Origin: Podarcis pityusensis
Taxonomy: Eukaryota
Length of the DNA: 64,000 bases
Reading direction: 5' to 3' (one strand)
Assembly: GCA_964106645.2 (NCBI GenBank)
Contig: OZ067047.1
In this document: in pieces, positions 12,594 through 51,214 of the stretch
Numbering within the stretch: position 1 is the first letter of the stretch
Layout: every line of letters begins with the position of its first letter
The notes under the pieces: generated by a model
The model's database searches: none
Told to the model about the DNA's origin: nothing
What the model saw: only the letters and a program-made list of their open reading frames with translations
Program-made: the position numbers and the translations under genes

Positions 12594-15570
12594 TATTATG
12601 CTCATGAATTCTAAGTTAATCAGTTTATTAGACCCCAGTTCCTGACCACATGAACAATCTGTGCCAAATACTAACTGTAGGGCTTAATAGATATTTATAA
12701 ACCAGTTTTGCAAGAGCTCAGAGCACTTCCAATATGGTACCACACTAAAGATAGGACACTAATCTCTTTATCACTCAGGTCAGGCACCAAAGAAAGTATA
12801 GAGTATCAGCATAGCTCACTCTGAAAAGCTCACTGTCATTTTGGTGGCCTAGGTCTTTTAGATTCTAAATGCTACATATGGGTTTAATCTGTTTTATAGT
12901 ACAGTATTTTCTGTTCCTAGTATTTCACATTGTTTTATGTGGTCTTCAAGTTTATTCTTGTTATTGTTTTTACTTTTTCTGCCAAATTAGACACTCAAGA
13001 AAGGCTTCTAACCTGAGAAGTATAATATACAGAAACCAAAATCCTCAGCTTTGAAGATTTTATAACGAACCACACAAAACTAAAGGCCACTGTACTTTCT
13101 CTGCATGACTAGTGGAGTATCAACATGTTTTAGTCAAAGTGGGAGTTCCAGCGATTGACACACAACTCTCTCCCACAGATGCATCAAATGCCAAGTTTAA
13201 AGGAATAGGAAAAGATCAGCTTAGTCCACAATTCTTAAAAAGAGAAATAATCTTCGGTAAAATCCACTTTGTCCCTCTCATATTTCTATTTGTTTCACCA
13301 GAATTCTGTGTTGCTAGTTCACAAAGCTTACACACCCATAGACTCCTTGTTCTTCCGCTGTGTCTCTGCCCCTGATCTTTCTTTCCTCCAACTTGGGCAC
13401 CCTCAACAACACCTGTTGTCCTCTTCGGTGATTCTACCCATTGCAGCCCAAAAGTTTGTCTTATGCCTGGAGCTTCCTCCAAGCAAACCTGCTTGGTGCT
13501 ACTTTTTTCTTCCAAATCACAGCTCACAGCCTGCTCTTGTCTTCAAAACCTTTGCCGTAATTCTTTAGTCCTCATCCCCAGCAGAAATGAACCCCATATT
13601 TGCAATTGCTAGCATTCATCCTCAGCTATTCTTCCTCTTTGCTTTTTCTACACTGCATTGCTTTGTTACCCTTGCTTCTTCCTATCAACCTCTTAACTTT
13701 CTTTCTGCCCTAGGGTAAATTCAGAATGTGAGCTGCTTCGGAGGATGGACCACTCTTGCTTATGTTACTCTATAGAACACTATGTACACTCAGGACACAT
13801 ACCACTTAAATGCAGTGTGTTGCTCATACTCCTTATCTGCCTATTCCTGCCCACTTTTTAATCACTGACTGTGTTTCTGAATCAGTGCCAGGAGTGGAGG
13901 CTGAACACTGCCCTGTTGACATCATTAAGGACTGCTGCAACATGTTGCCTGCAGCCATCTCCTAGCAACTATTAAGAGTCTCTAAATATTGAAAACCACT
14001 TGGGAATAGCCAAAGCCAATCTACATATTGAAATGACAAGGTTATCCTTACCTTAGGATGTATAAAGTCCAGGAATTAATACTAGCTGAATTCTTAACCG
14101 CTGCTGTCACCCTGATCCTCTCTGAAACTGCTGTTTCAAAACTTTTAACACAAAGTTTGGAAGAACCTTATTCCATTATCATTCCACTATGCAAAAGCTC
14201 TGGCACCCTGAGAGTCAGATGGCAACCCTGCAATTCTAACAAGATCACAGCCAACTCAGCTTAGTTTAACAGCTTTAAGAAATTAATAGCAAAATATTAA
14301 TGTCTACAGTATTAACAGAATATCAAAGCATCTAGAATACCACATTGTCGCCACTGCATTTTAAATCATGACATGCATTCTTGAAATTATTTTGAGAAGG
14401 AGAAAAAAATAACCTGCACATGATGACCCTAAAAAGAACCCTAGAGTTTATGGTGTCCAAAATTAAATGCAAAACTGCCTTATGAGAAGCACTTGCTCAT
14501 GCAGGTGATCCACACAACTGGATGTGTGTTTTTAAAAATGTACTATTTTTCCAACACGTTTAGAATAGTGTGCTAGCATCATATTTGTAAAACACTCCAT
14601 GCATGGAGTTTGGGGTAAAAGTCTTTTAAATGCTTTGGTTACTTGAAGGCCTTTTGCATGCCAATTCCCATTTAAATACAACTACCTGGGTCAGGTGCAT
14701 ATGGTGTTACAGAAATAAAGTGCAGCAATTTAAAAAACTATTTGTACAGTACTTTCTAACTATTAAAAATCCCTGGATATTGAAAACCACTTAGGAGCAG
14801 ACACAGACAACCTCCACATCATTATGAAGGGAAGATTATATCCCAATTAAGGCTCCGTTAGTGTGTTAAAAACAATTCAAATGATTATGATTGCCGGGTT
14901 GGGCTGAGAAGACGAGGCAAAAAATCCGTTACCTCCCAGGGAACTATAGGTTTTTTTCTATTTATGCGCTTTCCCAGAAATCCTACAACGGTTTGCACGA
15001 GAGCGGCGGCTGCAAGACCATGCGGTTTCAGGAATAACGCATGAGCAATCAGACTTCTCTTTTCCCCGGTCGCATCATGGGAGATCATTTTTTCCGCCGG
15101 GAGAAGTTCTGGCTCACGAGGAAGTGAATCTACTGAGAAAGCCCGCTTTTCATGCTCAAAGGTCGCAGCAACGCTGCTCGAGCTAGCCCAACGGCTGGAA
15201 TCCACACGTGCAGTTCCACCGAAAGTCTGGCGCGGGGGTGCGAAGAGAAACCTTGGGGATCCAGCCCCCCACCCCAATGCTTCTGCTTGCCTGGACTCTG
15301 CTCCCTCTGCGATCATCCGGAAGTGGCACCCGGCACCCTCCAGATCCCGCTGGGACTTGGGGACGGAACCGGGAAAGCGCCACGAGGGGCTCCCCAGAAA
15401 CTTAGGACTTAGTTTGGCGTGGGGCGCGGGGACAGAGAGCGAGCCTGGGAAGAACACGTGGGGTTGCAGCGGAAGGCGCGGCCTGCTGCGGGTCAGGCCA
15501 GGGCAAAGGCGCTCTTGCTCGGGACGGGGAGGATTCCCGCCCGGCGAAAGGAGGGGGGGGGCTCGCTTAC

Positions 15571-15681
15571 TTGCAGACTCGGCTTGGCTTTGGCGGGGCA
15601 GCTCCTGAAGAAGGAGGTGCGGGCGGTGAAGAAGAACTCCTCCGACTCGGACTCTTCCCAGCTGCTGTAGCCGCTGCTCAT
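15571..15681 (-). CDS. RASSF3: RASSF3 canonical first coding exon
   Basis: MSSGYSSWEESESEEFFFTARTSFFRSCPAKAKPSLQ matches the RASSF3 N-terminus (SSGYSS / FFTARTSFFR); 111 bp, phase-0 gtaagc donor; lies downstream of TBK1 on the same strand. I did not find exon 2 in the window. Confidence 0.95.
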
Positions 15682-15685
15682 GCTG

Positions 15686-15757
15686 CTAGTTCCCGTGGCG
15701 CGCCCTCCGTGCAGCAGCAGCAGCAGGGGGGCCCGGGCGTCCCTGCCGCCACCGCAT
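15686..15757 (-). promoter_or_regulatory. Candidate upstream ORF (23 aa) in the RASSF3 5' leader
   Basis: ATG...TAG encoding MRWRQGRPGPPAAAAARRARHGN; stop lies 4 nt before the main ATG; requires a TSS upstream of 15757. Confidence 0.45.
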
Positions 15758-16348
15758 GGAGACCCACCCGGCCGGAGCTCGGCGGCGGACAAGTCCCGTG
15801 GTCGCTGCGCGCCGCAGCCTGGCCGGCGGCGCACTGAGGCCGGCTCTCCTCTCGGACGCGCTTCCGCGGAGGCAGCGCCGCCTCCCGCCCGGCCAGCCAG
15901 CCAGCCAGCTAGCCGGGCCTTCCTCCCTCCTCCTCCCTTCCCCCGAGTGGCCGCGACTGGGCAGCTTCCCTGAGCCGCCACCTGCCTTGAAGCTGGGCGG
16001 GAGCTTCTGGCTCGCCTCCCTTTCCCCTCAGGAACTTGGCTCGCTCGCGCGCGCGCGGGGACTGCGCCCTCTCGCTCCCGCCTTGCAACAGGTGAGCCGG
16101 GAAAGACGAGGCCGCGCTTCTTCCTGCGGAGATCAGTTAGTGCTCCTCCCCAAGCGCCGTTTGGCTCCTGGGCACCTCGCCGCCAAAGTTTCGGCCCAGG
16201 CCGGCTGCATGAGCTAATATCCGTCGGAGATAGCGAGCGTTGATAGGCGCGCATTCTTGCAAAAGCGCTTCAAGGGTTGGCAAACGGCCCTCATTGTCAA
16301 GGGCACCTCCTTAGTTCCAGAAGAGCTCATCTCTTTTAAGAAACAAAA

Positions 16349-17088: not shown

Positions 17089-18384
17089 TATAAGTACCCA
17101 TATCCTAATGTAAAAGGCACTATAGTCAACAGAACTAAACAGTGGGGCAGAACAGGTTCAGTCTATGGTATGTGTGTGTGTGTGTGTGCGCGCAAGCAGT
17201 TTTTAAAACCAGGTTATCCCACAAAACGGACAGTTAGTAAAGTTGTGGACATGGGAGTGCCTTATGGGATGGCGGGAAGCAAATTTCTCTTCAGATAAAA
17301 GACAATACTTCTGTAGCTATTTGTTGCCAAGTGGCAGAATCATAATACTCTGATCGTAAGCATGGTTATGCTGAAGTGAATCTGACTCTTTATTGGGTCT
17401 TTTAGTCTAGGTTTCCTGCAGATGAGGAGTTTGCCACCTGTACATTCCCTGGCACATTTTGAACATGGTTAAAAACACAATGCTGAAATAATACAGCAAA
17501 GTAATATAATCTGAGTCTTAAAAAAAAAGACAGCACAAACATGGTAGGCATTTTAAAAATGTTCAGTTATTAATTCCACAAAACCAAAGCAAGTATAAAT
17601 ATGTTCTAAAGTTGAGTTGCAAATAAAGTTCCATAGTCAGTGTTTCCATAACTCTGAATATCTAATTGCATGTTGTCGGGATGAAAAGGAAGGAGAAAGA
17701 ACAAAAACAGTTGTTACATGAACACTGTACTGTCTGGTTTGTAACAACTAATACCATGCTAAGATGCCTGAAGTTATATTGATTTAGTGTCTGTATTTGC
17801 ATTTTTTTAAAGCTACTGGCAAAACACTTAACTGCATCAACAAAGGAATGAGCATATACGAATCAATGCTTTGTGTTAGCTTTCTGCCAAATTTCACAGT
17901 AAAGCAGAGAATATCATCCTCTGTGTCCTCCTAGTACAAGTTATGCATAAGTACTTTTCAGGTGGACAGCATAGCACTTTTTTCTATTCACCACTGAGTT
18001 CCAAAGCATGCTCTTTATAAATTATGAGCCAGGCATGCAAATGAAGGTTGGCCTGCTGGCTGTAAAATTTTAATTGGACTTTGAATTATAGTGTGTGAGA
18101 CAGACAATATGCTTCACAGGGGCCTTATGCTTTGCTTATGGACAACAACCAGAATTGCTACTTGTTATTCCTTGAGCCTCTTGCTCTATAAGACAATGGC
18201 AAAATCACATTACAAAAGAAGAAAAGTAGCTTTCTTACACCCAAAACTGATGGGTCCTTTAGTAAAGTATCAGGAATGTAAATAGCCGTTCATTTGTGCT
18301 ATGAATTCCTTTTGTGAGGATAGGCTCCTTTTTGTAAGGAGGTTTTTAGGAAATGCAAGTCATTTTATTTCAGACCTAGGTTAA

Positions 18385-19159
18385 CTACACAACCTTGATG
18401 GCAGAAAGTGAGGAGGAATTAAAGAACCTTTTATTGAGGGTGAAAGAGGAGAGCGCAAAATATGGTCTGAAGCTCAACATCAAAAAAACGAAGATCATGG
18501 CCACTGGTCCCAGCACCTCCTGGCAAATAGAAGGGGAAGAAATGGAGGCAGTGAGAGATTTTACTTTCTTGGGCTCCATGATCACTGCAGATTGTGACAG
18601 CAGCCAAATTAAGAGACGCCTGCTTCTTGGGAGGAAAGCAATGACCAACCTCGACAGCATCTTAAAAAGTAGAGACATCACCTTGCCAACAAAGGTCCGT
18701 ATAGTAAAAGCTATGGTTTTCCCAGTAGTGATGTATGGAAGTGAGAGCTGGACCATAAAGAAGGCTGATTGCCGAAGAATTGATGCTTTTGAATTATGGT
18801 GCTGGAGGAGACTCTTGAGAGTCCCATGGACTGCAAGAAGATCAAACCTATCCATTCTTAAGGAAACCAGCCCTGAGTGCTCACTGGAAGGACAGATCCT
18901 GAAGCTGAGGCTCCAATACTTTGGCCACCTCATGAGAAGAGAAGACTCCCTGGAAAAGACCCTGATGTTGGGAAAGATGGAGGGCACAAGGAGAAGGGGA
19001 CGACAGAGGACGAGATGGTTGGATAGTGTCTTCGAAGCTACAAACATGAGTCTGACCAAACTGCGGGAGGCAGTGGAAGATAGAAATGCCTGGTGTGCTC
19101 TGGTCCATGGGGTCACGAAGAGTCGGACACGACTAAACGACTAAACAACAACAACAACA
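18385..19159 (+). mobile_element. BovB (RTE clade) LINE, 5'-truncated
   Basis: Open 249-aa frame MAESEEELKNLL...RRIDAFELWCWRRLLRVPWTARRSN...GVTKSRTRLND typical of BovB; (CAA)n tail; TSD AGGTTAA. Confidence 0.95.
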
Positions 19160-35853: not shown

Positions 35854-35963
35854 CTGCCCATCATCAGTGTCATATACGGAGCCGCATTCCATCAGTTTTC
35901 CATTCTGCGTATAGTCCAGATGTACCAAGTCTTGACAGTGAGAACGGCATGTGTATTTGCAAT
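35854..35963 (-). CDS. RASSF3: Putative upstream RASSF3 exon encoding the degenerate second half of a C1 domain
   Basis: tttcag|AT TGC AAA TAC ACA TGC CGT ... GGG CAG|gtaatg; (D)CKYTCRSHCQDLVHLDYTQNGKLMECGSVYDTDDGQ resembles RASSF1A CKFTCHYRCRALVCLDC and RASSF5 CKFTCHPECRSLIQLDC; phase 1->0, as in those paralogous exons. Confidence 0.8.
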
Positions 35964-36442
35964 CTGAAACATAAAAGGCATGGCACAATTTAGATAACAT
36001 ATCAGTGCTATTCATGTTGCTTTGAATTCATATAATTGTCAACATTCCTATCCTGAACAGCAGCCTGTGCTCTGATTCTGAAGAGTGAGGGGCAGCCAAT
36101 TATGTTGGACCAGTAACACTAGACACAGAAAAGCCTTAACCAGCCTAGGCCCCAGCATCATAATTAAGCCAGTGCCAAATCCTATTAGATTGGGGACCCT
36201 TTACCCAGAAACCCTTGAATTGGGTTTGCATCCTTAGAGTCCTCATCCCTTGAAGAACCAGCTCTCTTCATGCTATGGACCCACAGCCTCATGTTGTCTG
36301 GTCAGCATAGGTGATAAGTTTGGAGGGAGTAGTCTAAGACGAGGAGGAATGTTAGGCTCCAAGCCAGAGACTTGCCCCTTGAAGGCCTTCTGCTCCTCAA
36401 GGAAGAGGCATAGAACTGGTTCTGGAGGCATAAAAGTATTTA

Positions 36443-36765
36443 CAGTGGTGCCTCGCAAGACGAAATTAATCCGTTCCGCGAGTCTCTTCGTCTTGCGGTT
36501 TTTTCGTCTTGCGAAGCACGGCTATTAGCGGCTTAGCGGCTATTAGTGGCTTAGCGACTATTAACGGCTTAGCGGCTTAGCGGCTATTAATGGCTTAGCG
36601 GTTTTAAGAAAAAGGAAACAAACTCGCAAGAACTCGCAAGACGTTTCGTCTTGCGAAGCAAGCCCATAGGGAAATTCGTCTTGCGGAACGACTCAAAAAA
36701 CGGAAAACTCTTTCGTCTAGCGAGTTTTTCGTCTTGCGAGGCATTCGTCTTGCGGGGCACCACTG
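36443..36765. mobile_element. Tc1/mariner-type MITE with internal minisatellite
   Basis: TIR CAGTGGTGCC(T/C)CGCAAGACGAA; GCGGCTTA / GCGGCTATTA repeats; CpG-rich, so probably young. Confidence 0.85.
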
Positions 36766-38996
36766 AAGTCCAGTCCTAGACTGTGTGGGAGCACTTAGCT
36801 CACTTCGAGCTTTCTATGGTGCTGAAAGGACCAGTCTACCTTACGCCCCATGGTCCTCTTGTTAAGGTCAGGATAGGACAATAATGCAACCTTATGATTA
36901 CAGTTACTGTAGTTTGACAAAAAATTGGGGTCTTTCCAGAGGCTTGTGCCTGTAAATAAATTGTTGTGGTGGACCCAGACGCCATTCTTGCAGGCAATGT
37001 GTCAGTTACCAATATAAGTTTTCTTGTGATCTGAAGTTGCTGGGAGGGAATAGGAACAATAAAGGTAAGCTAGAGGCAGCCTTGAAAGTTTCAAGGCATT
37101 TTATAAGGAAAATACCAAGAGGTTTGAGGCATGGACATTTGGCTCAACGGAAGTGGGCTGTTTTAAATATTATGGCAAGAAGGATATAGACTAGGCCACA
37201 ACCAAATTGAAACTCCCAGTCATGTGGAAACTGAAAATCATGCTGAGGCTGCCCAACCTGAGGAAAAGAAAAGCCCTTTAGGACAGTGACTTTTTGAAGC
37301 AGTAGAAATACACCAGCCTATATGTGTGGCCTTCATTGTTGCCTGGGGCAGAGCAAGATCACAAACACTGTAATGATAGCTGGAGATTGTGAATAACCAT
37401 TGTAAGGCATCCCATTTATTTTGTATTCATTTATTTTTATCATTTGAGCTGACATGTTTTGGGAAGTCAAATTAGAAAGCTGTGATTTGGTTAAACAATA
37501 TGCAAAGACAGGGTGGCTAATCACGTTAGGAAACTAGTGTTGCTATGGCTGTTTTTATTCTCACCATCAATCTCAATCTGAGTATCTTTGAAGTTGTTCA
37601 CATAAGAGGCTAATAATTTCTTCCTTTTAAAGAGCACTGTGCCTTTTGGGGGGGGGGGAATGAGGGGCTGATAATCATATATTGATAAAAGGTCTGTGGG
37701 TGCCAGTACAAAATGGCTGCCATGGGCGGCAAAAATAGCAAAGCCAGTACTCCATATGACTGCTGTCATAAAAAACACCCTAGAAACACAACTTAAAAAA
37801 ACAAAAACCCAACTTGTATAAGTCCAATTTATGCTTTGTGTTTAAAGTTTCAGTAGTTGTCTTCCACTGTGTTTACTGGCAAATTTTCTCTGTCAAATAA
37901 ATTCACACCAGTGATGGAAATCTTAGATACAGGTGGGCTACAAAAATGGCTACGACAGACTGGAAAAGTTCTACCATATGCCTCTGAATCAAATAAGGGC
38001 CAAACCACATGTTACATTAAATTCATTGTGTGGTATTGTTTGCTACTATTTATTTCCATTTTAAATAGCAAGTGGGGAGCAATCAGGGTTGAACTGGGAG
38101 CTACATTAAGAGTCTTTGCAGTCCCAATAACCCCCACCCCACCCTCCGCTGCTGCTTGTCTTGGCAATTGCAGCTGGGCCCTGAGAGTGGGAACAATGCA
38201 CAGTTAGTGATGCAGGTATTCTTCTATCCCCATTCCCATTTGTTAGGAGCTTGAGCAAGTCTACAGTGTTTTTGCCAGGATGAGGAAAGGCAGCAAAGTG
38301 TATTTGATGAAGCTATAAGAAGGCAGAGAGTGAACAAAGTACACATTGCAGGACCTACATTGTATAGGCCTGTACTAGAACCACAGAGACCATAAAGCTG
38401 AGAAAAAGATAGCTGTGTGTGAAAGCCTTTAAAGAATTATTCTTCCCACTCCTAGAGTACTTATCAATCTAATACAAAAATTATTTGCTTCTGAAATCAA
38501 GCTTTGTCCAGTCTTAATTTCTCATTCTTCTTTTCCTGATAACATCTGAAAGATGCTGATCTGGAGAATAGCACTGGCTCATGATGGTGCCACTAAAAAT
38601 TTACCAAATATTTATAAAGGCATTCTGATCAGATTGAAGTCTTCCCTCAGCAATTCAGCTGGCGCTGCACATAACAAATCAGTTCGCTATTTATTTACAG
38701 TATTGGTTTGTTTCTAAAAACACATCTGAAAAATACATGAGAAATAGATACAAAACAATATTTTAAGCTTTCCATTTTCAAACGATGAAGGGCTGCATGA
38801 TAAAACATTACTTTCGATTCTGCCCTAGGGCAAATTAAATTTGTCTTATTTATATATATAAAAAATTAGAATCCAAGGAGAACTAGCATAACGCTTGCAG
38901 CTGAAAAACATACAAATTACTTGCGGTCATGGTAGTTCCTTATATTCTGCCTGCAGCAACAGTGTGATCCTTTCACGGTGTTAAGTTGCCACCTAC

Positions 38997-39063
38997 CTGC
39001 TCTCTGCTTTTTCTTCACCTCAAGCTTGATTTTGCTGGATAGTTTGTATATGGCTGTTCCCAT
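38997..39063 (-). CDS. RASSF3: Candidate alternative first coding exon of a long RASSF3 isoform
   Basis: GTG ATG G Kozak context; MGTAIYKLSSKIKLEVKKKQRA plus 1 nt; CAG|gtaggt donor; phase 1 fits the 35963 exon. Confidence 0.6.
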
Positions 39064-40264
39064 CACAGAGCATCTACAAGGCTGCGTAGGCAAGCAGATT
39101 AACAGATGCTCTACAAGCAGACGCAGATAATTGAGCTGTGCTGGATCTCATAAAACAACCAGGCTGCTGCTGCTCAAGAGAAGTTTCCATATTCTGCCAG
39201 ACTTATTTTTCAGCCTTTGTAGCCCTACACGCTGAAACCTTGATTTGAATTAGCTGATTTGACTTCCAAATAAACATTTGTAAATGGAGGCTAAAGTCTG
39301 CACAGAACCAAAACAGGGATAAGCACGTCGGATTTGGTATGGGCAGTGCCCCTTTCTTATATCTCTCTTGAATAAATTTTCATTTGAAGCCATGTTATAT
39401 CTGCCGCTCAGCTAGACAACTCTGTGCCCCAACAATCATGAAGTGCGGATGGAAGGCTTTGCCGCCTTCACAAAACATGTGACTGGTGCTGTAATTTCTG
39501 GCTAGGCTTGTCAATGGTTGGAGCAGACAAAAGGGGTGCCTAGATTCAGTCACATATTTCACAATCAATCATATTCGGCAATGCAGGCAGTTTGGTAGTG
39601 TGAGTATGGTGCCAATGACCCACACACACTGACCCTTTGTGAGTGACCCTCAAACCATCATCTTGCATGCCCAGGATCCAATCTAGAAGGATGATCAACG
39701 CACCTGTATTTGAAATGTGCAGTCTGAACTTCTGCACATTTACTCAGAAGCAATTCACACTGATGTCAGTAAGATTTACTTACACACACATACACACATA
39801 TGCATGCATTGGTTGCAGCCTTACAATGCAACCCTATACATGCTTAATCAGAAGTAAGGCCCACTGTTTCAATGGGGCAAATTTTTAGGCAAGTGAAGAT
39901 AGCACTGCAGCCTTGAATGGGATTTGTCTCTCAAGAAAACTCAGAGATGACGAAATTGAGAATCGCAAAAGAATCTATTATGCCAGCTTTCAGTTTCTAC
40001 AGTATAGGAATGCCTTCAGATTCAGATGCGAACATTTTTTTCTGGTTAGAAAAAGTAAAGTGAGATTATAATATTCCATTGGGAAAAATGTATTTGCATA
40101 TGAATGTATACAGTTTTGTATTTGGGGGGGATTTTAAAATATCTATTTAGAATACAGAATGTCTCTTTAGGATCTGGATTCTAGAATATCTCATCTTTTT
40201 AATGATTTGAAATTTACCTGTGATAAACTGGCAGGACAACGGGGAGGAGGAGGAAGAGTATCCC

Positions 40265-40813
40265 TGTGTGTGGTGTAGCCGGGACTGGGACACACAGGGA
40301 CACAAGCTGGGAATGGGGAAGGAGAGGTTGGTGTAGGAAGTACTCACAGGTGATGGAGGATGACAAGGAGATGGGGGTCCAGTGCACAGGAACCAGAGCA
40401 GCAGGATCCACCACCAGAGGGGCCCCTATCTCCACAAACATGGCATGCTCTGAGGCGTAGGGAGCAGTGGGACAGAAGCTTTAGGAGGCTAGGGCAGGCA
40501 AGGGCCCACAACCCAGCTCCCTAGCTGGCCACTAGCTCAGGGAGGAGGTGTGTGATTCTTCAGCTGGAGTAGACTCAGGACAGGTGAGGGACACCTGCCT
40601 CATCAAGCCCAGATGCTGCAATCTGCATGCAAAGTACCAAAAGGAAGCAGAGATGAGGTGCTGTGTCTGCTCAACTGCCCATGTTGATGGACCTCAGCTT
40701 GGATGCTCCCGGACCACTATGGACTGTGCTTTGGACTGTGGATATGTGGATTGACCCTGGACTGGAGACTTGACAAACTGACTTGCCGCCAGGTAGGCCA
40801 GGGCTTGACGACA
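40265..40813 (+). mobile_element. Degraded solo LTR
   Basis: GC/purine-rich block with TGT...ACA ends, organised like the 9653 LTR; no clean TSD. Confidence 0.45.
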
Positions 40814-42334
40814 TTACCTAATAATACTATCTGATACTGTTTTTGCCTACATAATCTCTACCACCCCTGTTTTTTACGTCTCTTACTCCATGCTGGGCTC
40901 CTTTACAAGCCGCAGCATATAAATTCAGTACATGACTAATGATGATGATGGTAACAACAGCAATAATAACATGCTATGTTACCAGTAGGATATTCTAGTA
41001 GGAATGGGGAAAACCTTTCAAATTTGCTCTGTGGAGTTTTATCCCAGTTCTGTTGTGTCGCTGACTTATTCCATAGCTGCAGACACCTCCCTTTTCTACG
41101 TCTTTAGGGGGGCGAAACACAGAAAATGTCCAATAAAGAAAACTAATGAATCTTGCAGGTATGTAATTTCTTGACAGGGAGCTGGGGATATGATTGGAAA
41201 ACAGGCATCAGTAAACTGCTGTTTACCCCCCTCTAAGAGTGAGCTGGTGAAATAGAGCCTTATATCACTTACATTTTCTATCACAAATTCAATAACGTTT
41301 ATGCATCTTGCATGAAGTCGAAAGCATTGAACAGGCCATTTTGTCAAATGGGAGTTGCCAAATTAAGGCAGAATTCTCATTGCTCCATATTTCCCTGTAT
41401 GTGCTTGAATCAGACTTGTGGTGAAGTTCTGGTCAAATAGGTTTTGAAAGCTTGGCACATTTTGGATTGTCTCAGATATCACTCTGCTTTGGGTTTTAGT
41501 ATATTTACTTCAGTGATTATTTACTGACCCCTAGTGCTGAGTGTACAACATCACAACAACAAAGCGGCATCCCTTGCTTGATTCTGTTTATTAAAATGGG
41601 TCTGAAGCACGTCTTAGACTGGCAATCGGATTTAACAGGTTTGCTAAAATAATTTATTTCCCATGTGACTCTTAGGAGATATAAAGCCCCAATGGTCTCT
41701 GTGAAACCTGCAGTATTCCTGTAAACAAAATAAATTGCAAGGGTAAACACAGACACACAATTGTGATTAAAATGTCCAGGTTCAGAACTGTCAGCCAGCC
41801 CCAAACCTGAGTCCTCTGACACTATATCTCTAGATAACAAAACAGGGAAAGGGCTCAGAGCTGGGAAAGAAAAAGAGGGTACACTGTCCCCCCTCTCCTC
41901 AATATCTCCCTGGCCTCCAGAGACCTGAACAGCACTTCAAGGCTTGCAGCTATCTGGAGACCTGGAACAAGAATATCCACTGGATGGGGGAGACACTGTA
42001 ACATTGCAGGTCCTACTTGCGTTGACTGTGTTCAGAGCAACAAACAGAAAAGCTAGATAGAAAAATACTGCATCGGCGCAGTCTTGGAAAAATGTTCATG
42101 TCTGCTTAGGAAGAGAATCTCACACTGAAGGTAGCCTCTCACTTTGACACTTCAGATTTTCTCTCTGAAAGGTGGCAATTAACACATTTCTAGTTGGGTT
42201 TCTTAGTGGAAAAGAGCTCTGGGACTGCGCCACAGTGGCGTGTTTTGCAGAAGCACTGTCAGAAATGGATGTTGTCTCATTGGCCACTGTGAGAACAGGA
42301 CGCTGGACTGGGTGGGACATGGGCCTGAGGCATG

Positions 42335-42585
42335 CCCAGATACTGACGTCCAACTCTGAGGGCCTCCCCTCACTGTGAGGTGTGAAGCTACAGGGAATCA
42401 GGCAGAGAGCCTTCTCGATAGTGATGCCTGCCCTGTGGAATGCCCTCCCAGCAGATGTCAAAAAGATAACTATTTGACTTTTAGAAGATATCTGAAGTCA
42501 GCCCTGTTCAGGGATTTTTTAATGTTTTACTGCTATTTTAATATTTTTTTGGGAGCCACCTAGAGTGGTTGGGGCAGCCCAGTCA
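42335..42585 (+). mobile_element. L2 LINE 3' fragment
   Basis: Same family as 56322-56735. Confidence 0.8.
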
Positions 42586-42734
42586 TCATCATCATAAACA
42601 ACTTAGGGTGTGGCATAATACTTCATACATAAAGTGCCATTTCATAGTGGGAGAAATTGCTTGACACTGTGGGCAGGAGGGGAGAAGATGTGAATCCAGT
42701 AAATTCTTAAACTCTGGTGACAAACAACTTGGTT

Positions 42735-43685
42735 TTTCCATTTCATCAGAATCAGGAGAGGCTGCGAAAGTGTTGGACCACTGTCTGGAAGAAGTGATGG
42801 GCTGGACAGGGGGCAAGACACTGAGGCTGAATCCTGATAAAATGGAGGTGTTGTGAATGGGCTGTTCCCATGTCCAGGAATTAGGTGGACCTGTTCTGGG
42901 AGAGGTTGCTGAAGGAATAGGTTTGTAGTTTGGGAGTAATCCTGGATTCTAACTTGTCACCACAGTCTCAAGTGGCTTCTGTGACTAGGAATATTTTGCC
43001 ATTCCTGGACTAGGATAGCCTGGCCTCACTTGTCTGTGCTCTGGTGACCTCCTGCCTGGATTGCTGCAATGCAATCTCCCTGGGGCTGCCCTTTAAGATG
43101 GTCCAGAGGCTGGAGCTAGAACACAATGCAGCTGCTAGACAGATAAGTGGATCAGCCTGATAGAAGCATGTATCACTGGTCCTGAAAGCACTGCAGTGGC
43201 TGCCAGGGAGCTACCACAAATCAAAGTGCTATTACTAGCATGCAAAGCCTAAAATGGCTTGAGACCCTAAAAGAGTGCCTTCCCCAATATCAACCATCTC
43301 AGGCTCTACGATTGCCATGGGAGGCCCTGTTGGTGCAACTGCTGGTGGTGTCCCTTCGTTGGCATTAACCCAAGACAGGGCCTTCTTGGTGGCTGCTCCC
43401 CATTTTTGGAATCCTGCCCCCCTCGGTACAGGGCACCTGTACTTTTCTTTATGAACTTTCAGAAAGAATTTGAAAACATTCCCGTTTACCCAGGCATTTG
43501 ATGACTGAGCCTTTCTGCTCCTGCAACCTTGAAATTGCTAGCTGTGAAAGTATGGCGTCGTTTGTGAATGTTTTGAATACATCGCTGTGCTATTTTTAAT
43601 TGTTCTTGCTTTAATGCTGATGTGTTTCCCACTCTGGGCTCCTTTGGGAGGAAAGGCTTGATATACGTTTAATACATAAATAAAT
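42735..43685 (+). mobile_element. Older degraded L2 LINE fragment
   Basis: Remnant ORF2 motifs (LRLNPDKMEVL; LDCCNA..LGLP; RAFLVAAP) with stops and frameshifts. Confidence 0.75.
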
Positions 43686-44152
43686 GGGTTTTCTAAAATT
43701 ATTAACCACGTGTAAAACATGGTGAGGAAGGCATTTCTCTCCTTCTCTCATGATAGCACCTGGGGTCACCTGACGGTAGGTTCAGGACAGGCTATGTTGA
43801 CCAAATGCATAATGAATGATATTGACTCGCAAAAGATGTGGTGGTAGCCATAAACTTAGATGGATCAAGTAAAGGATTAGGCAAACTCGGGAATGGCCAT
43901 TGCTTGTAGAAGCAACGTATCCCTGGTTCCAAGATGTTGGAAGATATCTTCCTTCCTTCCTTCCTTCCTTCCTTCCTTCCTTCCTTCCTTCCTTCTCCGC
44001 TCCTCCACATGCAGCTGCTGGGTGACCTTGGGCCAGTCACACTTCTTTGAAGTCTCTCAGCCCCACTCACCTCACAGAGTGTTTGTTGTGGGGGAGGAAG
44101 GGAAAGGAGAATGTTAGCTGCTTTGAGACTCCTGGAGGGGAGTGAAAGGCGG

Positions 44153-44302
44153 NNNNNNNNNNNNNNNNNNNNNNNNNNNNNNNNNNNNNNNNNNNNNNNN
44201 NNNNNNNNNNNNNNNNNNNNNNNNNNNNNNNNNNNNNNNNNNNNNNNNNNNNNNNNNNNNNNNNNNNNNNNNNNNNNNNNNNNNNNNNNNNNNNNNNNNN
44301 NN
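44153..44302. other. Assembly gap (150 N)
   Basis: Run of N; true length unknown. Confidence 1.
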
Positions 44303-44960
44303 TGCCATATGAAGCTGAATGCTAGAGCAGATGGCCTTAATCCACCAAAGCAATATTTTAAGAATATATCTCAAAAGAATGCATATGATCAGAATTCAGA
44401 CAGGAGCACGATGGGCCCATGTACCCACTGCTGCTTGGCACAAGTGTTCCCTAAAGAACAGCTTTCAAGTCTTCATTCAAACTCAATGAGGAGCTCTTCT
44501 CTTTCTCTGTCTCTGCCATAAGTGAAGCAGCAGCTTCAGACATCTTGTAAATAGTATATCTTTTTGCCCAGGCTTTCCCTAATCCATAAGATCAGTCCAT
44601 TTTTCTCTGTATAAATTTGCTGAACCCGTTTTTTAAATATGCTTCCATACTTTACTGTTGTATTTTTGTTTTAATGAAATTGTTACGGTGTTCATGTAGT
44701 ACACTGCTTAGATTTTAAAAAAATATTAAGCTGTTTATTATCTATCTACCAATGGAGATGTGCTGGTTCGAAGAGAAGAGTAAAAATCTTAGTAGGCCTG
44801 CTCAGACCCTTAGATGTGCTTCAAGCAACTTGACACAGACTAATTTATTTCTGCTACAACACTCATCACAAAACTGCGGGAGAAAGGGTTTTAGTTTTGT
44901 TAAGAGAACATGACTTCTCAATTTAAGTTCATTGCAGAGAAGAGGAAAAGATAAACTTAC

Positions 44961-45081
44961 CAGAAGATGTGCAAAGAAGCTTGATTTTTCTCCTCCTTGG
45001 GCTACCCAGTGATTTGGGGAACCAATAAAAAAACTGTGCTATCCTTCTAATTGTTTTGTTGAAGTCGTTTCTTATTGCCAT
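44961..45081 (-). CDS. RASSF3: Candidate distal first coding exon of a long RASSF3 isoform
   Basis: GCT ATG G Kozak context; MAIRNDFNKTIRRIAQFFYWFPKSLGSPRRRKIKLLCTSS plus 1 nt; consensus G|gtaagt donor; phase 1; a further in-frame ATG at 45165. Confidence 0.55.
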
Positions 45082-47086
45082 AGCTAAAGTCAGCCGACTG
45101 CTCTTGAGGTAACTGCACAGAAGTGCAGGAAGGAAGGAAAAAGCCTCAAATACCCACAACCCCATAAGATCGCCGTGAATAGAACCTCAGCCAGCATGTC
45201 TCAAGGCCACCTGTTGGTCCTAAATCCTCTCATCTACATTTAGTAAACTAGAGATCTCTATCTTTATATTCAGTCACATTACTATAACCAAACTGTATGG
45301 TGGTACAGTGAGAGGAATTCATCAGTATCTTTACAAAAATGCTGTTTAAAAAACCATTTCCTGTAGTATTTTTCTCAGGTTATATATGATCCCAACATTA
45401 AACAGGTGTTTTCCTTACAGAAATCCGTTAATCAAATCAACAGAGCATTCTTCCCACAATCTTATGAAGTGGGTGATGAATTATAAAGATACCTTGATAT
45501 TGTTACTATTTAGAATGAGGTGCTCTGTTACTAACATGTTTATTTGAAAATAAATCCTTTTCTGATTCTAAACTGTACTGCCAGGATCTATGCTAAAGTT
45601 TCCAATATGCAGTCTTAGGCTCAGTCTCTAACAAATCACTTTTGCTGACACTGAAATCCAACAAATGAATAAAATATATACAGTAGTGGCTTACTTTTGG
45701 CACCTCAAAATGAAAGTCTATAAATAAATGACATGCTTTTATATATAGATAAGAATGATGAATCTGTGCAACCGTGATGCTTATATTTTCATTGTGCTTT
45801 TAGATAATTACACTATTCTCATTAAACAAAACAGTGTCCAATTGAAAAGGATGCCCATATTTTTTACATTTGCTGCTGTTTAGAGTTTATTGCCTCCAGC
45901 TATCTCGTTTAAGTTGACATTTTCTTGGCTAAATCCAGACACAACAGCACACAAAACGTTATAGGAACAAAGATGTTGCATCAAAATTGTAAAATGACTT
46001 AAAAGCATTTGTGTAACACAGTGCATAGTACTGATGTTTCAGGAGATATTTATGTTTCACTCCTCCATACTAAAACATGTAAGATATTTAGACCCCCACT
46101 TTCAGATATTTTTAACTTACTGCCTTTTTCCAGTCTGAATCTTGATAGATTGTATTTCCTGCGTCAATGTGTCCTAGAAGATAAAGCAAACATTTCCACA
46201 GATATTCTTTTGTCTGTGTCTGTTTGAATATAAGAGACAGATATCCAACAGAAAAACTGTTTCCTAGTTTTCACTATATTGCATGGAAGCCAGAAGGAAT
46301 GTCGGAGCAAAGTATTTTAATGCAACTGGGAAGCCAAGGACCACTGAAAACATAATAAAAGTTAGGGTGTTTTGTATCTCAACAGCTAGATTGTTTATTA
46401 AACTCATAAACTTCTTAGAATCCCATCATGATTTAAGATGCTGAGTATGTCCCATAATACCCTGAGTGATGTATCTTCATGTGTTGTTTATTCAATTAAG
46501 ATTTTAATTCTTGGCTAGATCCATACTCTACACACTGTGAAAGCAGGATAATAGACTTGATGGGTCTTTAGTCTTATCTAGAAAAGGTGTCTTCTTATAT
46601 TTTAAATTCATTATTTTAAATTAAAAATGAAATGTACACCTTTTTTAAAAATACTTTTTCAGTGATAACTTAAAACACTGGCTATCCCTTTGTTTCTTTG
46701 CAGAATATTGGAAACACAAAGGACTGGAATTTCTATGATGGAATTGGAGAGTTTAAAAATGTAGGATGTGGCAACGTTCAGGCGAACTTGTTCCCAAGAC
46801 TTGTTAGGGACAAACGCTAGTTTCAGTCATATTGTAGCTGCGAGACTAAGATAAAGAACAAGTATCAGAAAATGGAATGCAGTTTGGTTGTTTTATTTTC
46901 TAGGTCACTTCTGTGTTTTCTTCACTCCTCACTTTCCTCTGTGGCCCTCTAGTCTTGTGCCATGCTCCCCCCATTTAAGTGATTTTCACCTGTGGAATAT
47001 CCTGGGCCCCCCCAGGGAGCCACGTGGCCCTCAGTTGAGAAACGCTGCCCTACCAGATGCATGGTTTTATTATTTGTGGTGACCTA

Positions 47087-47429
47087 AGTGGGTGGCGCTG
47101 TGGGTTAAACCATAGAGCCTAGGGCTTGCTGATCAGAAGGTCGGCAGTTTGAATCCCTGTGACAGGGTGAGCTCCCGTTGCTCGGTCCCTGCTCCTGCCA
47201 ACCTAGCAGTTCGAAAGCACATCAAAGTGCAAGTAAATAGGTTACGCTCTGGCAGGAAGGTAAACGGCGTTTCCATGCGCTGCTTTGGTTCGCCAGAAGC
47301 GGCTTAGTCATGCTGGCCACATGACCCGGAAGCTGTACGCCAGCTCCCTCGGCCAATAAAGCGAGATGAGCGCTGCAACCCCAGTGTCGTCCGCGACTGG
47401 ACCTAACGGTCAGGGGTCCATTTACCTTT
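47087..47429 (+). mobile_element. Sauria SINE
   Basis: Similar to the other copies. Confidence 0.9.
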
Positions 47430-47959
47430 AAGCCATATTTTGGTGTGGGGCCCCGCTTACATTGAAATTTCCGCCTTCATATTTGACCATTGTTGGTAAG
47501 CACAGGAATGCCTGACTGGGCCTTGCACCCAAAGAAAGCCCTAGACTGTATGGGATCTCATGCAATCCTGTAGAGGACACTCTCCTGAACACGAGTGCAT
47601 GATATGTGGTGGTACAAAGCAATATTGGAGTGGGCAACCCCAGTTCCACCCACCCCCATATTTTGGCTATTGCTGATCTGCATAAATGTGTTTCATAGTG
47701 CCATGTGCCAGCTCTAGGCCAGGTGAGATTTCAATGGCATCTTGTAGAGGACATTTTCATGGTTGTATCGGTGTATGATTTGTGGTGGAAATAGCCATAT
47801 TTTGCAGTGGCCACCTTCAGTTACCTGTTTTTTTTAAAAAATGGTTGCATGATGTAATCACATATTTATGAGCATTTCACAAGCATGTTGTTGACTGAAG
47901 AAAATTACCGTTGGGCTCAAAGGAGTGTGTCCTCTGATCATGGAGATATATATCATGTA

Positions 47960-48315
47960 AAAGGTAAAGGTAAAGGGACTCCTGACCATTAGGTCCAGTC
48001 GCGGACGACTCTGGGGTTGCGGCGCTCATCTCGCTTTATTGGTCGAGGGAGCCGGCATACAGCTTCCAGGTCATGTGGCCAGCATGACTAAGCCGCTTCT
48101 GGCGAACCAGAGCAGCGCACGGAAACGTCGTTTACCTTCACGCCAGAGCGGTACCTATTTATCTACTTGCACTTTGACGTGCTTTCAAACTGCTAGGTGG
48201 GCAGGAGCAGGGACCGAGCAGCGGGAGCTCACGCGTCGCAGAAATTTGAACCGCTGACCTTCTGATCAGCAAGCCCCAGGCTCTGTGGTTTAGACCACAG
48301 GGCCACCTGCATCCC
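47960..48315 (-). mobile_element. Sauria SINE
   Basis: TSD TATATATCATGTA. Confidence 0.93.
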
Positions 48316-51032
48316 TATATATCATGTAGGGTATCCCAAATATTATTTTGCAATTCAGAGACATACTTTACTTCGGAGTTCAGAACATATTAACTTTTCT
48401 TCTTTTTTCAGTGTTTCAAACTTTCAACCAAATAAGGAACTGGGAACTAGCAACCAACTTCAGCGTCCTGCTCATACCTTGTTGTTTTTTTAATTATTTC
48501 TTTCAACCCATTATCTTTCACACACTCTTAACAATGTTCTATAACACTGTGAGTATCCAGTCTTGAAGTCCAATGATGTACATTGCTTACGTACCAAGAT
48601 CAGCAATTCCTCATATCAAGGACAATGAATTAGAAGTGTGAAAAGAGATTTATTTCTCATGCTGCTGCCTAACTTGTGGTACATTGATTTGAAGAGAATT
48701 TTCGCAAGACCCACAGCCGCTGCCGATAGAGTTACTATACAGACTAAGAATGGTAGAGTTCCCTCTACAAATTAATATGAAAGCACAATGCAAAATATTG
48801 AACACTACAAAAAAGCAAGCTGGTATATGTCATATTGTTTACAACTTATCTTAATAATTTACATGGAGGAAGGGGGAACAGGACCTTTTTTCTCTTGAGT
48901 GCTGCGTACCCTGTAATGTAATCTGTTGGGGGCTGTAAGCAGGGGCAGAGACAAAAGCAATGTAGATTAATCCAGAATAGACTGTACTGCTTCAATTTTC
49001 ACCATGGCTACCACGGATTAGAATTCTCAGTCCTATAAAGGTGTCCTCAGAAATAAGCCCCTCTGGGTTATTTGGGGTTATTTTTTATTTTAGTATAGGA
49101 GACTAATATAGGTAATTTGAAAAGCAAGTAAAAGTAATTCCTTTCTTATTTTAGTGTGCCATATGCACATAAACATATACGATAGAAAGCTATCAATTTG
49201 TTCTTGGGCAGCTGAGAGAACCCCCCCCCAAAAAAAAAGCCCAGAAGAAAAGCTTAAAAAAAGTATTTTAATCAAATAAAACACTGCCCCTCACCGTTAT
49301 TCTGAAACTTCATAGAAAGACAGCAAAATCCTTTAAAATAAAATAAAATGAAACTAATAGAAAGGAAGGAACTCTGAAGGGATGGGAGAATGTGGCAGAA
49401 GTGCCTTCAGCAACATAAAAGCTGTCATCCATGATTTACACTATTTGTTTAAAACTGGTTTCAGTATATGGAAGAAAAATCGACCCTTCTCCAATTCCTC
49501 CCTTCAAAAATTATGTTATAGAGTAAACAGGATTATGCAAAATGATGATTCTGTAAAACAGAAAACGATAGCATAAAGTAAACACGTTACAGAAATATAA
49601 TCTCAACATTTCAGAATAGACATTTACATACAATAAGGCAGCAAAGTTTCACATAGATTTACTACCTATGATTTCCGTAGTCCTTCCAACTAGGTTATTG
49701 GAAACTTGGTAATGAAAATAAGAGCTGCAACAGTGAAATAATATTTCTTTATCCATTTGAGACTATGTAGAGACGGGTGATTTTTATTTGTATTTTGGCA
49801 TGTCAGAATGGAGGAGACAGAAGGTAGAGTTGATTAGAAATTTGATTAAAAGAAACGAAGGCCTCAACCCACAGAAATCTAGAATAGTCTCAGATCAATT
49901 GGGTCTCTCCTAGAACTTATCCAGAATACTCTGGCTTAGAACAACAGCCTTACTTTCTAGACACGTTGGAAAATAAGTTCCACTAAAGTCAGTAAGACTG
50001 AATTAGACTGGTTTTGTATGTGTGCATGTCTGTTGAATTAAAAAAATTTAAAACACAGTGTAAGGAAGGTAGCAGAAGCTCACTTCTCTACTACCTCCTC
50101 CCCATGATAGCTTATCAAATGCTGAACTAAATTTTGGGCCTCTGTGCTGAATGAGGTTGATGAGCTGTAAGGAAGATTCCCCAAAACTGGGCCAAGGCAC
50201 TTTCAGTGAGTGAGGAAAGTGCCAACTCTTCAGGGATCCCCTTTTCCAAGGCAACTGCGTAAACACCTGTGCCAATGTTTTACCTCAGTGTCAAACGCTT
50301 CACAATAGCTTTAATAAAAAAAGGAAAGAATTCTCCTACTTTAGTAGAACTGACAAAGATTAGAAACCAGTATATGGGCCACACCAGGCTCAATGTTTAG
50401 CATGTAAGAAAGTAAATGCTACTTTTGAAATTGTATGGTGTTTGGTTTTTTTTTTAAATGCCAGTAAGAATTAATAACAAGGTTCACTGATTTTGAGACA
50501 CACTCTATGCTAGCGAACATGTTACAGCTTTTCCGTCACCTGTTGATTTAGCAAATAGAAGATTCAATTTGTATGTGCTTTTAAATCCCAAACTGGCAGA
50601 TTATACATACTCAAACTGAACATGATTACAAACTCAAAAATATTTCCTTCACCATTAGTTAAGAGAGATACTTTTTCAAGAGGTAATCATACTTTTCCCT
50701 GTCTCTTTTTTTGTACTTTGTAAGAGACATCTGCTCACAATGAAAGACAGCAGGAAACAATTTCAGAGGATCATAAATGAGGTACTGTGCATTCAGGTGA
50801 CTTAAGGGGAAGCCCAATTTCCTTGACAAAAATGAAGTAGGGTTTTTCCAAGACCAGTTTCTCTAGCAACATTCACAAGTAAACAGGCAAGGACAGCATT
50901 TGAAGCAATTGCATTGTGTCGATGTGCTCATCACAATATGCAGCCGTCATTATTTCACACGGAGGAAAGTTCTGATGTTACTCCAAATGTTAAGACCACT
51001 TGTAACGTTACCAAAAGAAATATACTTTCTAT

Positions 51033-51057
51033 TATATACATTATGTACATATTTACA
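51033..51057 (-). promoter_or_regulatory. Three tandem Pumilio response elements in the TBK1 3'UTR
   Basis: Minus strand reads TGTAAATA TGTACATA A TGTATATA; each matches UGUANAUA. Confidence 0.6.
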
Positions 51058-51061
51058 TGCT

Positions 51062-51067
51062 TTTATT
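51062..51067 (-). terminator. Candidate proximal poly(A) signal of TBK1 (AATAAA)
   Basis: AATAAA on the minus strand about 95 nt after the stop codon; usage unknown. Confidence 0.4.
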
Positions 51068-51162
51068 AAATACTGAGGGGGAATGCCAAGTTCAGAAAAC
51101 TCTTTCAATGGATATACGCTCTTTCTGTGCAAATTCAGATTGTGTTGTGGTAAATTGTCCAG

Positions 51163-51214
51163 CTAAATACAATCCACATTCCTTGGGCCACCATCCATCG
51201 TCAAAGCACCAAAC
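51163..51214 (-). CDS. TBK1: TBK1 last coding exon with stop codon
   Basis: FGALTMDGGPRNVDCI-TAG; tttag acceptor; 52 coding bp. Confidence 0.96.

Follow-up and report, generated by a model that had tools for sequence, protein, structure and literature searches.

What keeps half of a zinc-binding domain in a gene when its other half is nowhere to be found? The question is raised by one exon of RASSF3, the gene of a growth-control adaptor, in Podarcis pityusensis, which lies in a window of 64,000 nucleotides (the whole stretch of DNA analysed, C10:47616001-47680000 of a 1.5-Gb genome). This exon encodes the second half of a C1 domain followed by a linker, and it carries other residues at two of the positions where a C1 domain has zinc ligands. 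We ask here what these residues replace, whether the first half of the domain is still present, which products could use the exon, and how the same exon has fared in other vertebrates.

The gene and its surroundings

The identity of the gene is clear from several sides. A 40-residue query from the exon matched both candidate proteins (2/2), each of them named RASSF3 (Podarcis muralis and Pogona), and the four core exons of the gene are found just left of the window (C10:47615164-47610856), intact and matching P. raffonei RASSF3 at 93-100%. The RA and Nore1-SARAH domains score above cut-off in the P. raffonei protein, and the RA-SARAH exons follow downstream in frame here. We are dealing with an ortholog and not a paralog, as two more distant paralogs sit on C2 and C6; both (one RASSF1-like, one RASSF5-like) retain whole C1 motifs in the lizard genome. 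The upstream neighbour, on the same strand, is TBK1, with coiled-coil exons (TBK1_CCD1) mapped down to 55893, and we take synteny of RASSF3 with TBK1 to be the usual arrangement. What we take to be the TBK1 C-terminus reads as follows:

51214-51163, minus strand: last coding exon of TBK1, read from the sequence; its stop ends at 51163 and an AATAAA stands at 51067-51062

Two probable repeats were also seen. An open frame of 254 codons (18380-19144, plus strand) presumably resembles the 3' end of a LINE reverse transcriptase, and a CpG-rich element built of short tandem units (36250-36760), 300 bases upstream of the acceptor of the shared exon, is likely a non-autonomous DNA transposon.

A C1 half with two ligands of eight

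A C1 domain holds six Cys and two His ligands, in order, for two zinc sites. The first and last Cys encoded by the exon studied here belong to one site, and its His and middle Cys to the other. The exon and its two altered positions are:

35963-35854, minus strand: shared second exon of RASSF3, 110 nt, completing a phase-1 codon and ending in phase 0
35946-35944, minus strand: CGT (Arg) at the His ligand, placed by alignment to C1 structures and to full-C1 RASSF3
35913-35911, minus strand: TAT (Tyr) at the terminal Cys ligand, placed in the same way

Reading along the minus strand, a pyrimidine tract and an AG acceptor precede 35963, a GT donor follows 35854, and with the phase-1 G the exon translates to DCKYTCRSHCQDLVHLDYTQNGKLMECGSVYDTDDGQ. 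Its descent from a C1 domain is supported by its alignment to the second half of full-C1 RASSF3, at 67-71% identity, and to the second exons of the paralogs. Ligand positions were placed on the NORE1/RASSF5 C1 structures 1RFH and 2FNF, to which the exon alone is a weak match (E 0.17-0.23); full-C1 RASSF3 of Sceloporus matches the same two structures at E 3e-13, and its His and last Cys columns are those occupied by the CGT and TAT codons here. The structures and the full-C1 alignment thus confirm what a sequence-only reading of this DNA had proposed, namely Arg and Tyr at the C1 His and terminal Cys. According to that reading the ancestral codons would have been CAT and TGT; the comparison made here is between proteins.

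With the first-half exon absent (see below), His replaced by Arg and Cys by Tyr, two ligands of eight are left, their order being checked by the 2FNF/1RFH alignment. Each zinc site would then keep a single ligand of four, so that no C1 fold should be able to form. The earlier view that the domain was dismantled while its frame and splice sites were kept therefore stands (AG/GT, 110 nt, in frame, 2/8 ligands). Pfam tells a similar story: no family was found for the shared exon, and C1_1 was found in none of the six beta or gamma proteins scanned (isoforms described below), among them the Podarcis beta isoforms. The same family passes its cut-off in five of the six alpha proteins scanned (Sceloporus, turtle, chicken, falcon and frog), that of a shark scoring 25.6 against a cut-off of 26.5.

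An assembly error at these codons, which reads were expected to expose if it existed, is ruled out: in the contigs of 4/4 read sets, which carry three species labels, no difference is listed for CGT or for TAT. These four are drawn from 24 listed runs (two from one organism in two studies, one each from two others); one may be the source of the assembly itself, contigs hide rare alleles, and two of the four sets each carry one further difference without an assigned position. Among three further runs, the sole change listed in the shared exon is synonymous (35917, in one run).

The two replacements do not share a history. RASSF3 of P. muralis and of P. raffonei is identical to the window at 35/38 exon residues, and in both species Tyr stands at the terminal Cys position while the His ligand is retained. 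Ligand decay has therefore been stepwise, with two losses and not one event. From these sequences, Cys to Tyr would be the older change, common to Podarcis, and His to Arg a later one marking a subclade that spans three species labels.

The first half of the domain is absent from the assembly

In relatives with a full C1 domain, the other four ligands are encoded by a first exon that we call alpha. By analogy with the paralogs, this exon would lie 5' of the gene's other first exons or between them, which defines where it should be sought:

35964-51100, minus strand: interval expected to hold the alpha exon, its 5' boundary set by the last coding exon of TBK1; no match, and no relic above noise

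The sequence-only reading had reported no intact first-half exon between 35964 and TBK1. Profile and scan bear this out for the C1 half, although the interval does hold two intact first exons, beta and gamma, that had been overlooked. A profile built from 36 RASSF3 alpha segments reached at most 6.8 bits (on the wrong strand) in the window plus 30 kb of flank, while the paralog first exons, as controls, gave 52.7 and 29.4 bits. In a frameshift-tolerant scan of 35964-51100 the top score was 31.4, inside the noise of 15 shuffles (25.2-35.3); here the paralog controls scored 89.5 and 51.3, and the plus strand 37.8. An FCDECC look-alike at about 44873-44856 (minus strand), just inside the intron past beta, was rejected as a chance match, its score of 31.4 falling within the shuffles and below the plus strand. 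Searches of the whole genome agreed: none of the 122 Pfam C1_1 matches listed is at the RASSF3 locus, and neither turtle and Sceloporus proteins, nor the Sceloporus first-half segment, nor a codon pattern retrieved a RASSF3 alpha exon. These alpha queries did recover the paralog first exons, with only the best candidates scored, and each query saw only one paralog, so that their sensitivity is limited.

Hiding places are few. The stretch at 44153-44302, a gap in the earlier note, which had named it as a place where an intact alpha exon might lie, is made up of real sequence in the assembly: 150 bases of 3- and 4-base repeats that lack CpG and encode neither Cys nor His in any of the three minus frames; an alpha exon hidden there is ruled out by this content. 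The stretch adjoins a SINE-like repeat with at least 17 other copies, themselves preceded by GAA-type runs. No assembly gap is left between TBK1 and the shared exon. The first exons of both paralogs are CpG-island exons, and both islands are assembled; across 35964-51100 there is no CpG island except a SINE-like repeat near 47000.

Other first exons and a predicted in-frame bridge

Three further first exons of RASSF3 were located in the window:

45081-44961, minus strand: first exon beta, coding part (MAIRNDFNKTIRRIAQFFYWFPK...), 40 aa, phase-1 donor G/GTAAGT
39063-38997, minus strand: first exon gamma (MGTAIYKLSSKIKLEVKKKQRA), net charge +6; encodes Gly2 and a basic patch; phase-1 donor G/GTAGGT
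15681-15571, minus strand: first exon of the short textbook isoform (MSSGYSS...), phase-0 donor, bypassing the shared exon, in a CpG island at about 15000-16250

Beta, which has an additional in-frame ATG at 45165, is predicted to form a basic amphipathic helix (net charge +9, hydrophobic moment 0.88). An AlphaFold2 model of the P. muralis beta isoform, of low confidence (26 sequences, mean pLDDT 37), places a helix at 3-18, in agreement with the moment calculation in this one respect, and we give it no weight. The exon scores 88 bits on the beta profile and matches the beginning of P. muralis isoform X2 at 40/40 residues, and NCBI models join it to the shared exon in both P. muralis and P. 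raffonei. Its orthologs were found in carp, amphibians, turtles, squamates, birds, a marsupial and placentals including human. Gamma scores 43 bits on its own profile, with 18/22 residues identical to Sceloporus X3 and 12/22 to chimaera. Gly2 is present in the window and in 8/8 distinct gamma segments aligned, a count that is not independent because the search pattern demanded Gly2; position 6 is Tyr in the window and in six of these eight segments, and Cys in two, both from teleosts. Myristoylation follows a rule that asks for a small residue at position 6. Gamma thus has the Gly2 but not the small residue expected for N-myristoylation, and it is possible, at most, that the isoform is myristoylated. 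There was no gamma isoform among the lacertid records retrieved, and gamma may be unannotated in Podarcis.

The phase-1 ends of beta and gamma and the phase-0 start of exon 3 make the shared exon their predicted in-frame bridge to RA-SARAH. Neither N-terminus is recent. Their orthologs reach back to carp and chimaera (and are also seen in gar, amphibians, turtles and Sceloporus), and several of the taxa that have them also retain the full-C1 isoform, Sceloporus being annotated with all four starts (alpha, beta, gamma and short). Beta and gamma therefore predate the loss of alpha, and the earlier suggestion that the exon had become a linker for new N-termini fails on the word new. Their profiles found nothing in 21.8 kb at the RASSF1-like paralog or in 2 kb at the RASSF5-like first exon. 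A representative search with the beta exon returned seven matches, five of them clear beta exons read into the intron and two unrelated, with none beyond the family; an Atlas search with the gamma N-terminus gave no usable match.

Two annotated isoforms of other species deserve mention. In Rhinopithecus roxellana, the beta N-terminus is joined directly to exon 3 and the shared exon is skipped. In P. muralis, a long open frame across the CpG island of the short form, corresponding to 16254-15571 (minus strand) in the window, is annotated as an isoform of 428-434 aa; our frame aligns to it only with gaps and scrambled stretches, and it is thus probably noncoding upstream of the usual start.

Ligand state across jawed vertebrates

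The shared exon is carried by 123 of 282 stored proteins, a redundant collection and not a census (the best 120 of 987 matches, a region search with nine matches, and 22 cluster look-ups, some in part). The records retrieved from crocodilians, geckos, monotremes, the tuatara and most snakes and marsupials are annotated isoforms without the exon, and hence go unscored. Alpha, recognised by a first exon with H-x-F...WCDxCC...C, is present in 43 proteins, from sharks, a ray, sturgeon, paddlefish, carps, frogs, turtles, birds and Sceloporus undulatus.

Aligning orthologs, which had been proposed as the way to date the losses, showed, besides the Tyr common to Podarcis and the later Arg, that all four exon ligands are kept in 43/43 alpha proteins. 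They are also kept in 10/10 gamma proteins and in 96/97 proteins outside therians and Podarcis, the exception being Candoia. Taken singly, the His ligand is found in 96/97 of the non-therian, non-Podarcis proteins and in P. muralis and P. raffonei. The terminal Cys is replaced by Tyr in 3/3 Podarcis RefSeq and 21/21 placental proteins, and is Cys in 97/97 others and in the sugar glider; because this marsupial keeps it, the change to Tyr occurred separately in placentals and in Podarcis. In therians the first Cys is replaced by Gly (23/23) and the His is mostly kept, meerkat and marmoset having lost it as well.

Non-intact exons come only from therians, Podarcis and Candoia, for none of which did the retrieved records include an alpha isoform; the independent losses behind this pattern are two or three only. 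The records retrieved for P. muralis and P. raffonei are without alpha, and those for Lacerta agilis, Zootoca and P. lilfordi hold only isoforms without the shared exon. Anolis, Elgaria, Pogona and Naja have intact ligands, yet no alpha isoform among the records retrieved, so that a missing alpha annotation is weak evidence.

Two further observations belong to this survey. In the boa Candoia aspera the shared exon shows His to Asp and Tyr to Cys, while Naja is intact; this may be a third decay, in boas, separate from the others. Birds, which keep the full C1, have LGC-RRNGK past the last ligand, a more basic exit than in other reptiles.

Apparent constraint on the remaining half

Not every residue of the orphan half seems to have been free to change. 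Cys5 and Cys9 are invariant in 123/123 proteins and in the window; Cys5 is not a zinc ligand in the C1 scheme. His14 is kept in 26/26 therian and Podarcis proteins but is variable among fishes and frogs, and Tyr often takes the place of His8. Across 11 placental genera, invariant columns number 15 among the first 21 and 3 among the last 20 (Fisher p 4e-4, with columns and species non-independent), and pairwise identity is 0.88 for the C1 half, 0.58 for the rest of the exon and 0.87 for the beta exon. Such a contrast suggests continuing constraint, be it on the protein or on splicing signals, and the two invariant cysteines might have a second use, for example in a different Cys/His site.

Discussion

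We consider it very probable that the RASSF3 shared exon of this lacertid is what remains of a C1 domain whose alpha exon is absent, likely by deletion, that it has been kept likely through beta and gamma, and that its ligands, no longer under selection in all likelihood, were lost one by one. This explanation builds on what can be observed directly, that is the sequence, the absence of alpha from the assembly, the reading frames and the taxon pattern of annotated proteins: ligand state tracks alpha; beta and gamma are intact and in frame; and the downstream exons are intact as well. Deletion of alpha, splicing in P. pityusensis, relaxed selection and membrane targeting are what we infer from them. 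In the scenario we favour, ancestral jawed vertebrates would have had four starts: alpha, leading to the full C1-RA-SARAH protein; beta and gamma, each leading to a short basic N-terminus, half a C1 and RA-SARAH; and the short form, bypassing the exon. Alpha would then have been deleted in the lineage, the shared exon likely surviving as a predicted part of the beta and gamma transcripts. Selection on its zinc ligands was then likely relaxed, and they would have changed from Cys to Tyr first, and later from His to Arg in a subclade. The RASSF3 adaptor could thereafter be steered to membranes by the beta helix, or by the Gly2 and polybasic tail of gamma, in place of the C1. Therian mammals would have taken the same route separately.

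Pure relaxation fails to explain the contrast between the first 21 and last 20 columns in placentals, and it is here that a second role for the half domain has to be weighed. Its Cys-x3-Cys-x4-His could serve as S-acylation sites near membrane-binding N-termini or as half a metal site; we regard this as unlikely, although the invariance of Cys5 and Cys9 in all 123 proteins, the His14 of every therian and Podarcis protein, and a placental C1 half that is 88% identical when the remaining exon is 58% all speak in its favour. However, His14 varies in fishes and frogs, His8 is often Tyr, the columns and species counted are not independent, and constraint from a splice enhancer near the acceptor could mimic the signal. 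That a half metal site is completed by a partner or by a SARAH-linked dimer seems just as unlikely, and such repurposing would add to the best explanation and not replace it. Going further, RASSF3 would be by origin a Hippo adaptor with a C1 domain and four promoters, and the Cys-x3-Cys(-x4-His) might have been kept after the separate losses of alpha in mammals and wall lizards as a lipidation or half-metal site which, together with the basic helix, would place an unstudied RASSF3 isoform, encoded in humans too, on membranes, for example those of mitochondria, where MIRO is bound by the RASSF3 RA domain; this is a quite unlikely extension.

Could the exon instead be a dying relic, unspliced in this lineage, with frame and splice sites persisting only because little time has passed? 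Over its 38 residues it differs at three positions from P. muralis and likewise at three from P. raffonei, versus none or one in the 40 residues of beta; this would be in line with a relic, as would the Lacerta and Zootoca records retrieved without the exon. But beta and gamma are intact and need the exon for their frame, NCBI models of two Podarcis species include it, and the one change listed among three further runs (35917) is synonymous, which makes a relic very unlikely. We find it highly improbable, finally, that alpha is real and was dropped by the assembly, the lizard C1 being then crippled or variant. GC-rich first exons are often missed in assemblies, and in both paralogs the alpha exon lies in a CpG island; alpha is also unannotated in many squamates with intact ligands, and our genome searches score the best candidates only, the Sceloporus query missing one of the two paralog exons. 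Yet the sequence from TBK1 to the exon is gapless, the islands of both paralogs and of the RASSF3 short form were assembled, P. muralis and P. raffonei records also lack alpha, and two fixed ligand losses fit its absence. Deletion of alpha, with beta and gamma holding the shared exon, thus remains the explanation we retain.

There is nothing unusual in the mechanism, the loss of one alternative exon followed by relaxed selection, and public annotation already contains the isoforms. The locus nevertheless offers a clean and datable case of an intron-split domain that decays ligand by ligand while its exon is held by other isoforms. Mammals and wall lizards have lost the full C1 separately, with the same Cys to Tyr change in placentals and in Podarcis. 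Annotated full-C1 RASSF3 ranges from sharks to birds, with one lizard among its holders; reviews, in the portions available, list C1 only for RASSF1A and RASSF5A, and for RASSF3 a single functional form. Our results also draw attention to a human isoform that is annotated but, it seems, unstudied, and whose basic amphipathic N-terminus is conserved.

Comparison with known systems

In the sections available of the papers cited here, RASSF1, RASSF3 and RASSF5 are grouped together (bioRxiv 10.1101/2020.02.05.923433), C1 domains are named for RASSF1A and RASSF5A, with an intramolecular contact between C1 and RA (PMC3337673), a cysteine change in the RASSF1A C1 abolishes microtubule localisation (PMC3371342), and RASSF3 is a 238-aa protein of five exons like RASSF1C and NORE1B (PMC2586335), the only form of it that these texts describe. 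The RA domain of RASSF3 is described as binding MIRO1/2, RASSF3 alone being cytosolic, with no isoform specified in the text consulted (PMC11316025). A literature search, mainly of openly accessible main texts, returned no description of a C1-bearing RASSF3, of beta or gamma, or of the human beta isoform.

RASSF1 is the closest parallel in architecture. Like RASSF3, RASSF1A/1B/1C have a C1 split over a first and a shared second exon, and a short isoform without C1; human RASSF1B joins another first exon (1-beta) to the C1-half exon, as far as the available text goes (PMC2586335). The two genes differ in that RASSF1B is reported in the same text to encode RA and SARAH only, whereas beta and gamma of RASSF3 have conserved coding N-termini that run through the half C1; and RASSF1 keeps its full-C1 exon, also in the lizard, whereas RASSF3 is here without it. 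The C1 of RASSF5/NORE1A (1RFH, 2FNF) aligns ligand for ligand with full-C1 RASSF3 of Sceloporus, with the same exon break. As four first-half ligands are missing in our window and two more are replaced, the reported C1-RA contact could not form.

Within RASSF3 itself, the full-C1 proteins of Sceloporus, birds, turtles, frogs, fishes and sharks have the orthologous exon and the same beta, gamma and short isoforms, and differ from the lizard studied here in keeping alpha and all four ligands. Nearest in state is the human RASSF3 isoform of 284/299 aa (XP_047284667.1, UniRef100_A0A1B0GUG6), in which a beta N-terminus is followed by the orphan half with the same terminal Cys to Tyr change. Human and other mammalian RASSF3 have in addition replaced the first Cys by Gly and have mostly kept the His, whereas in the Podarcis window it is the His that has given way, to Arg.
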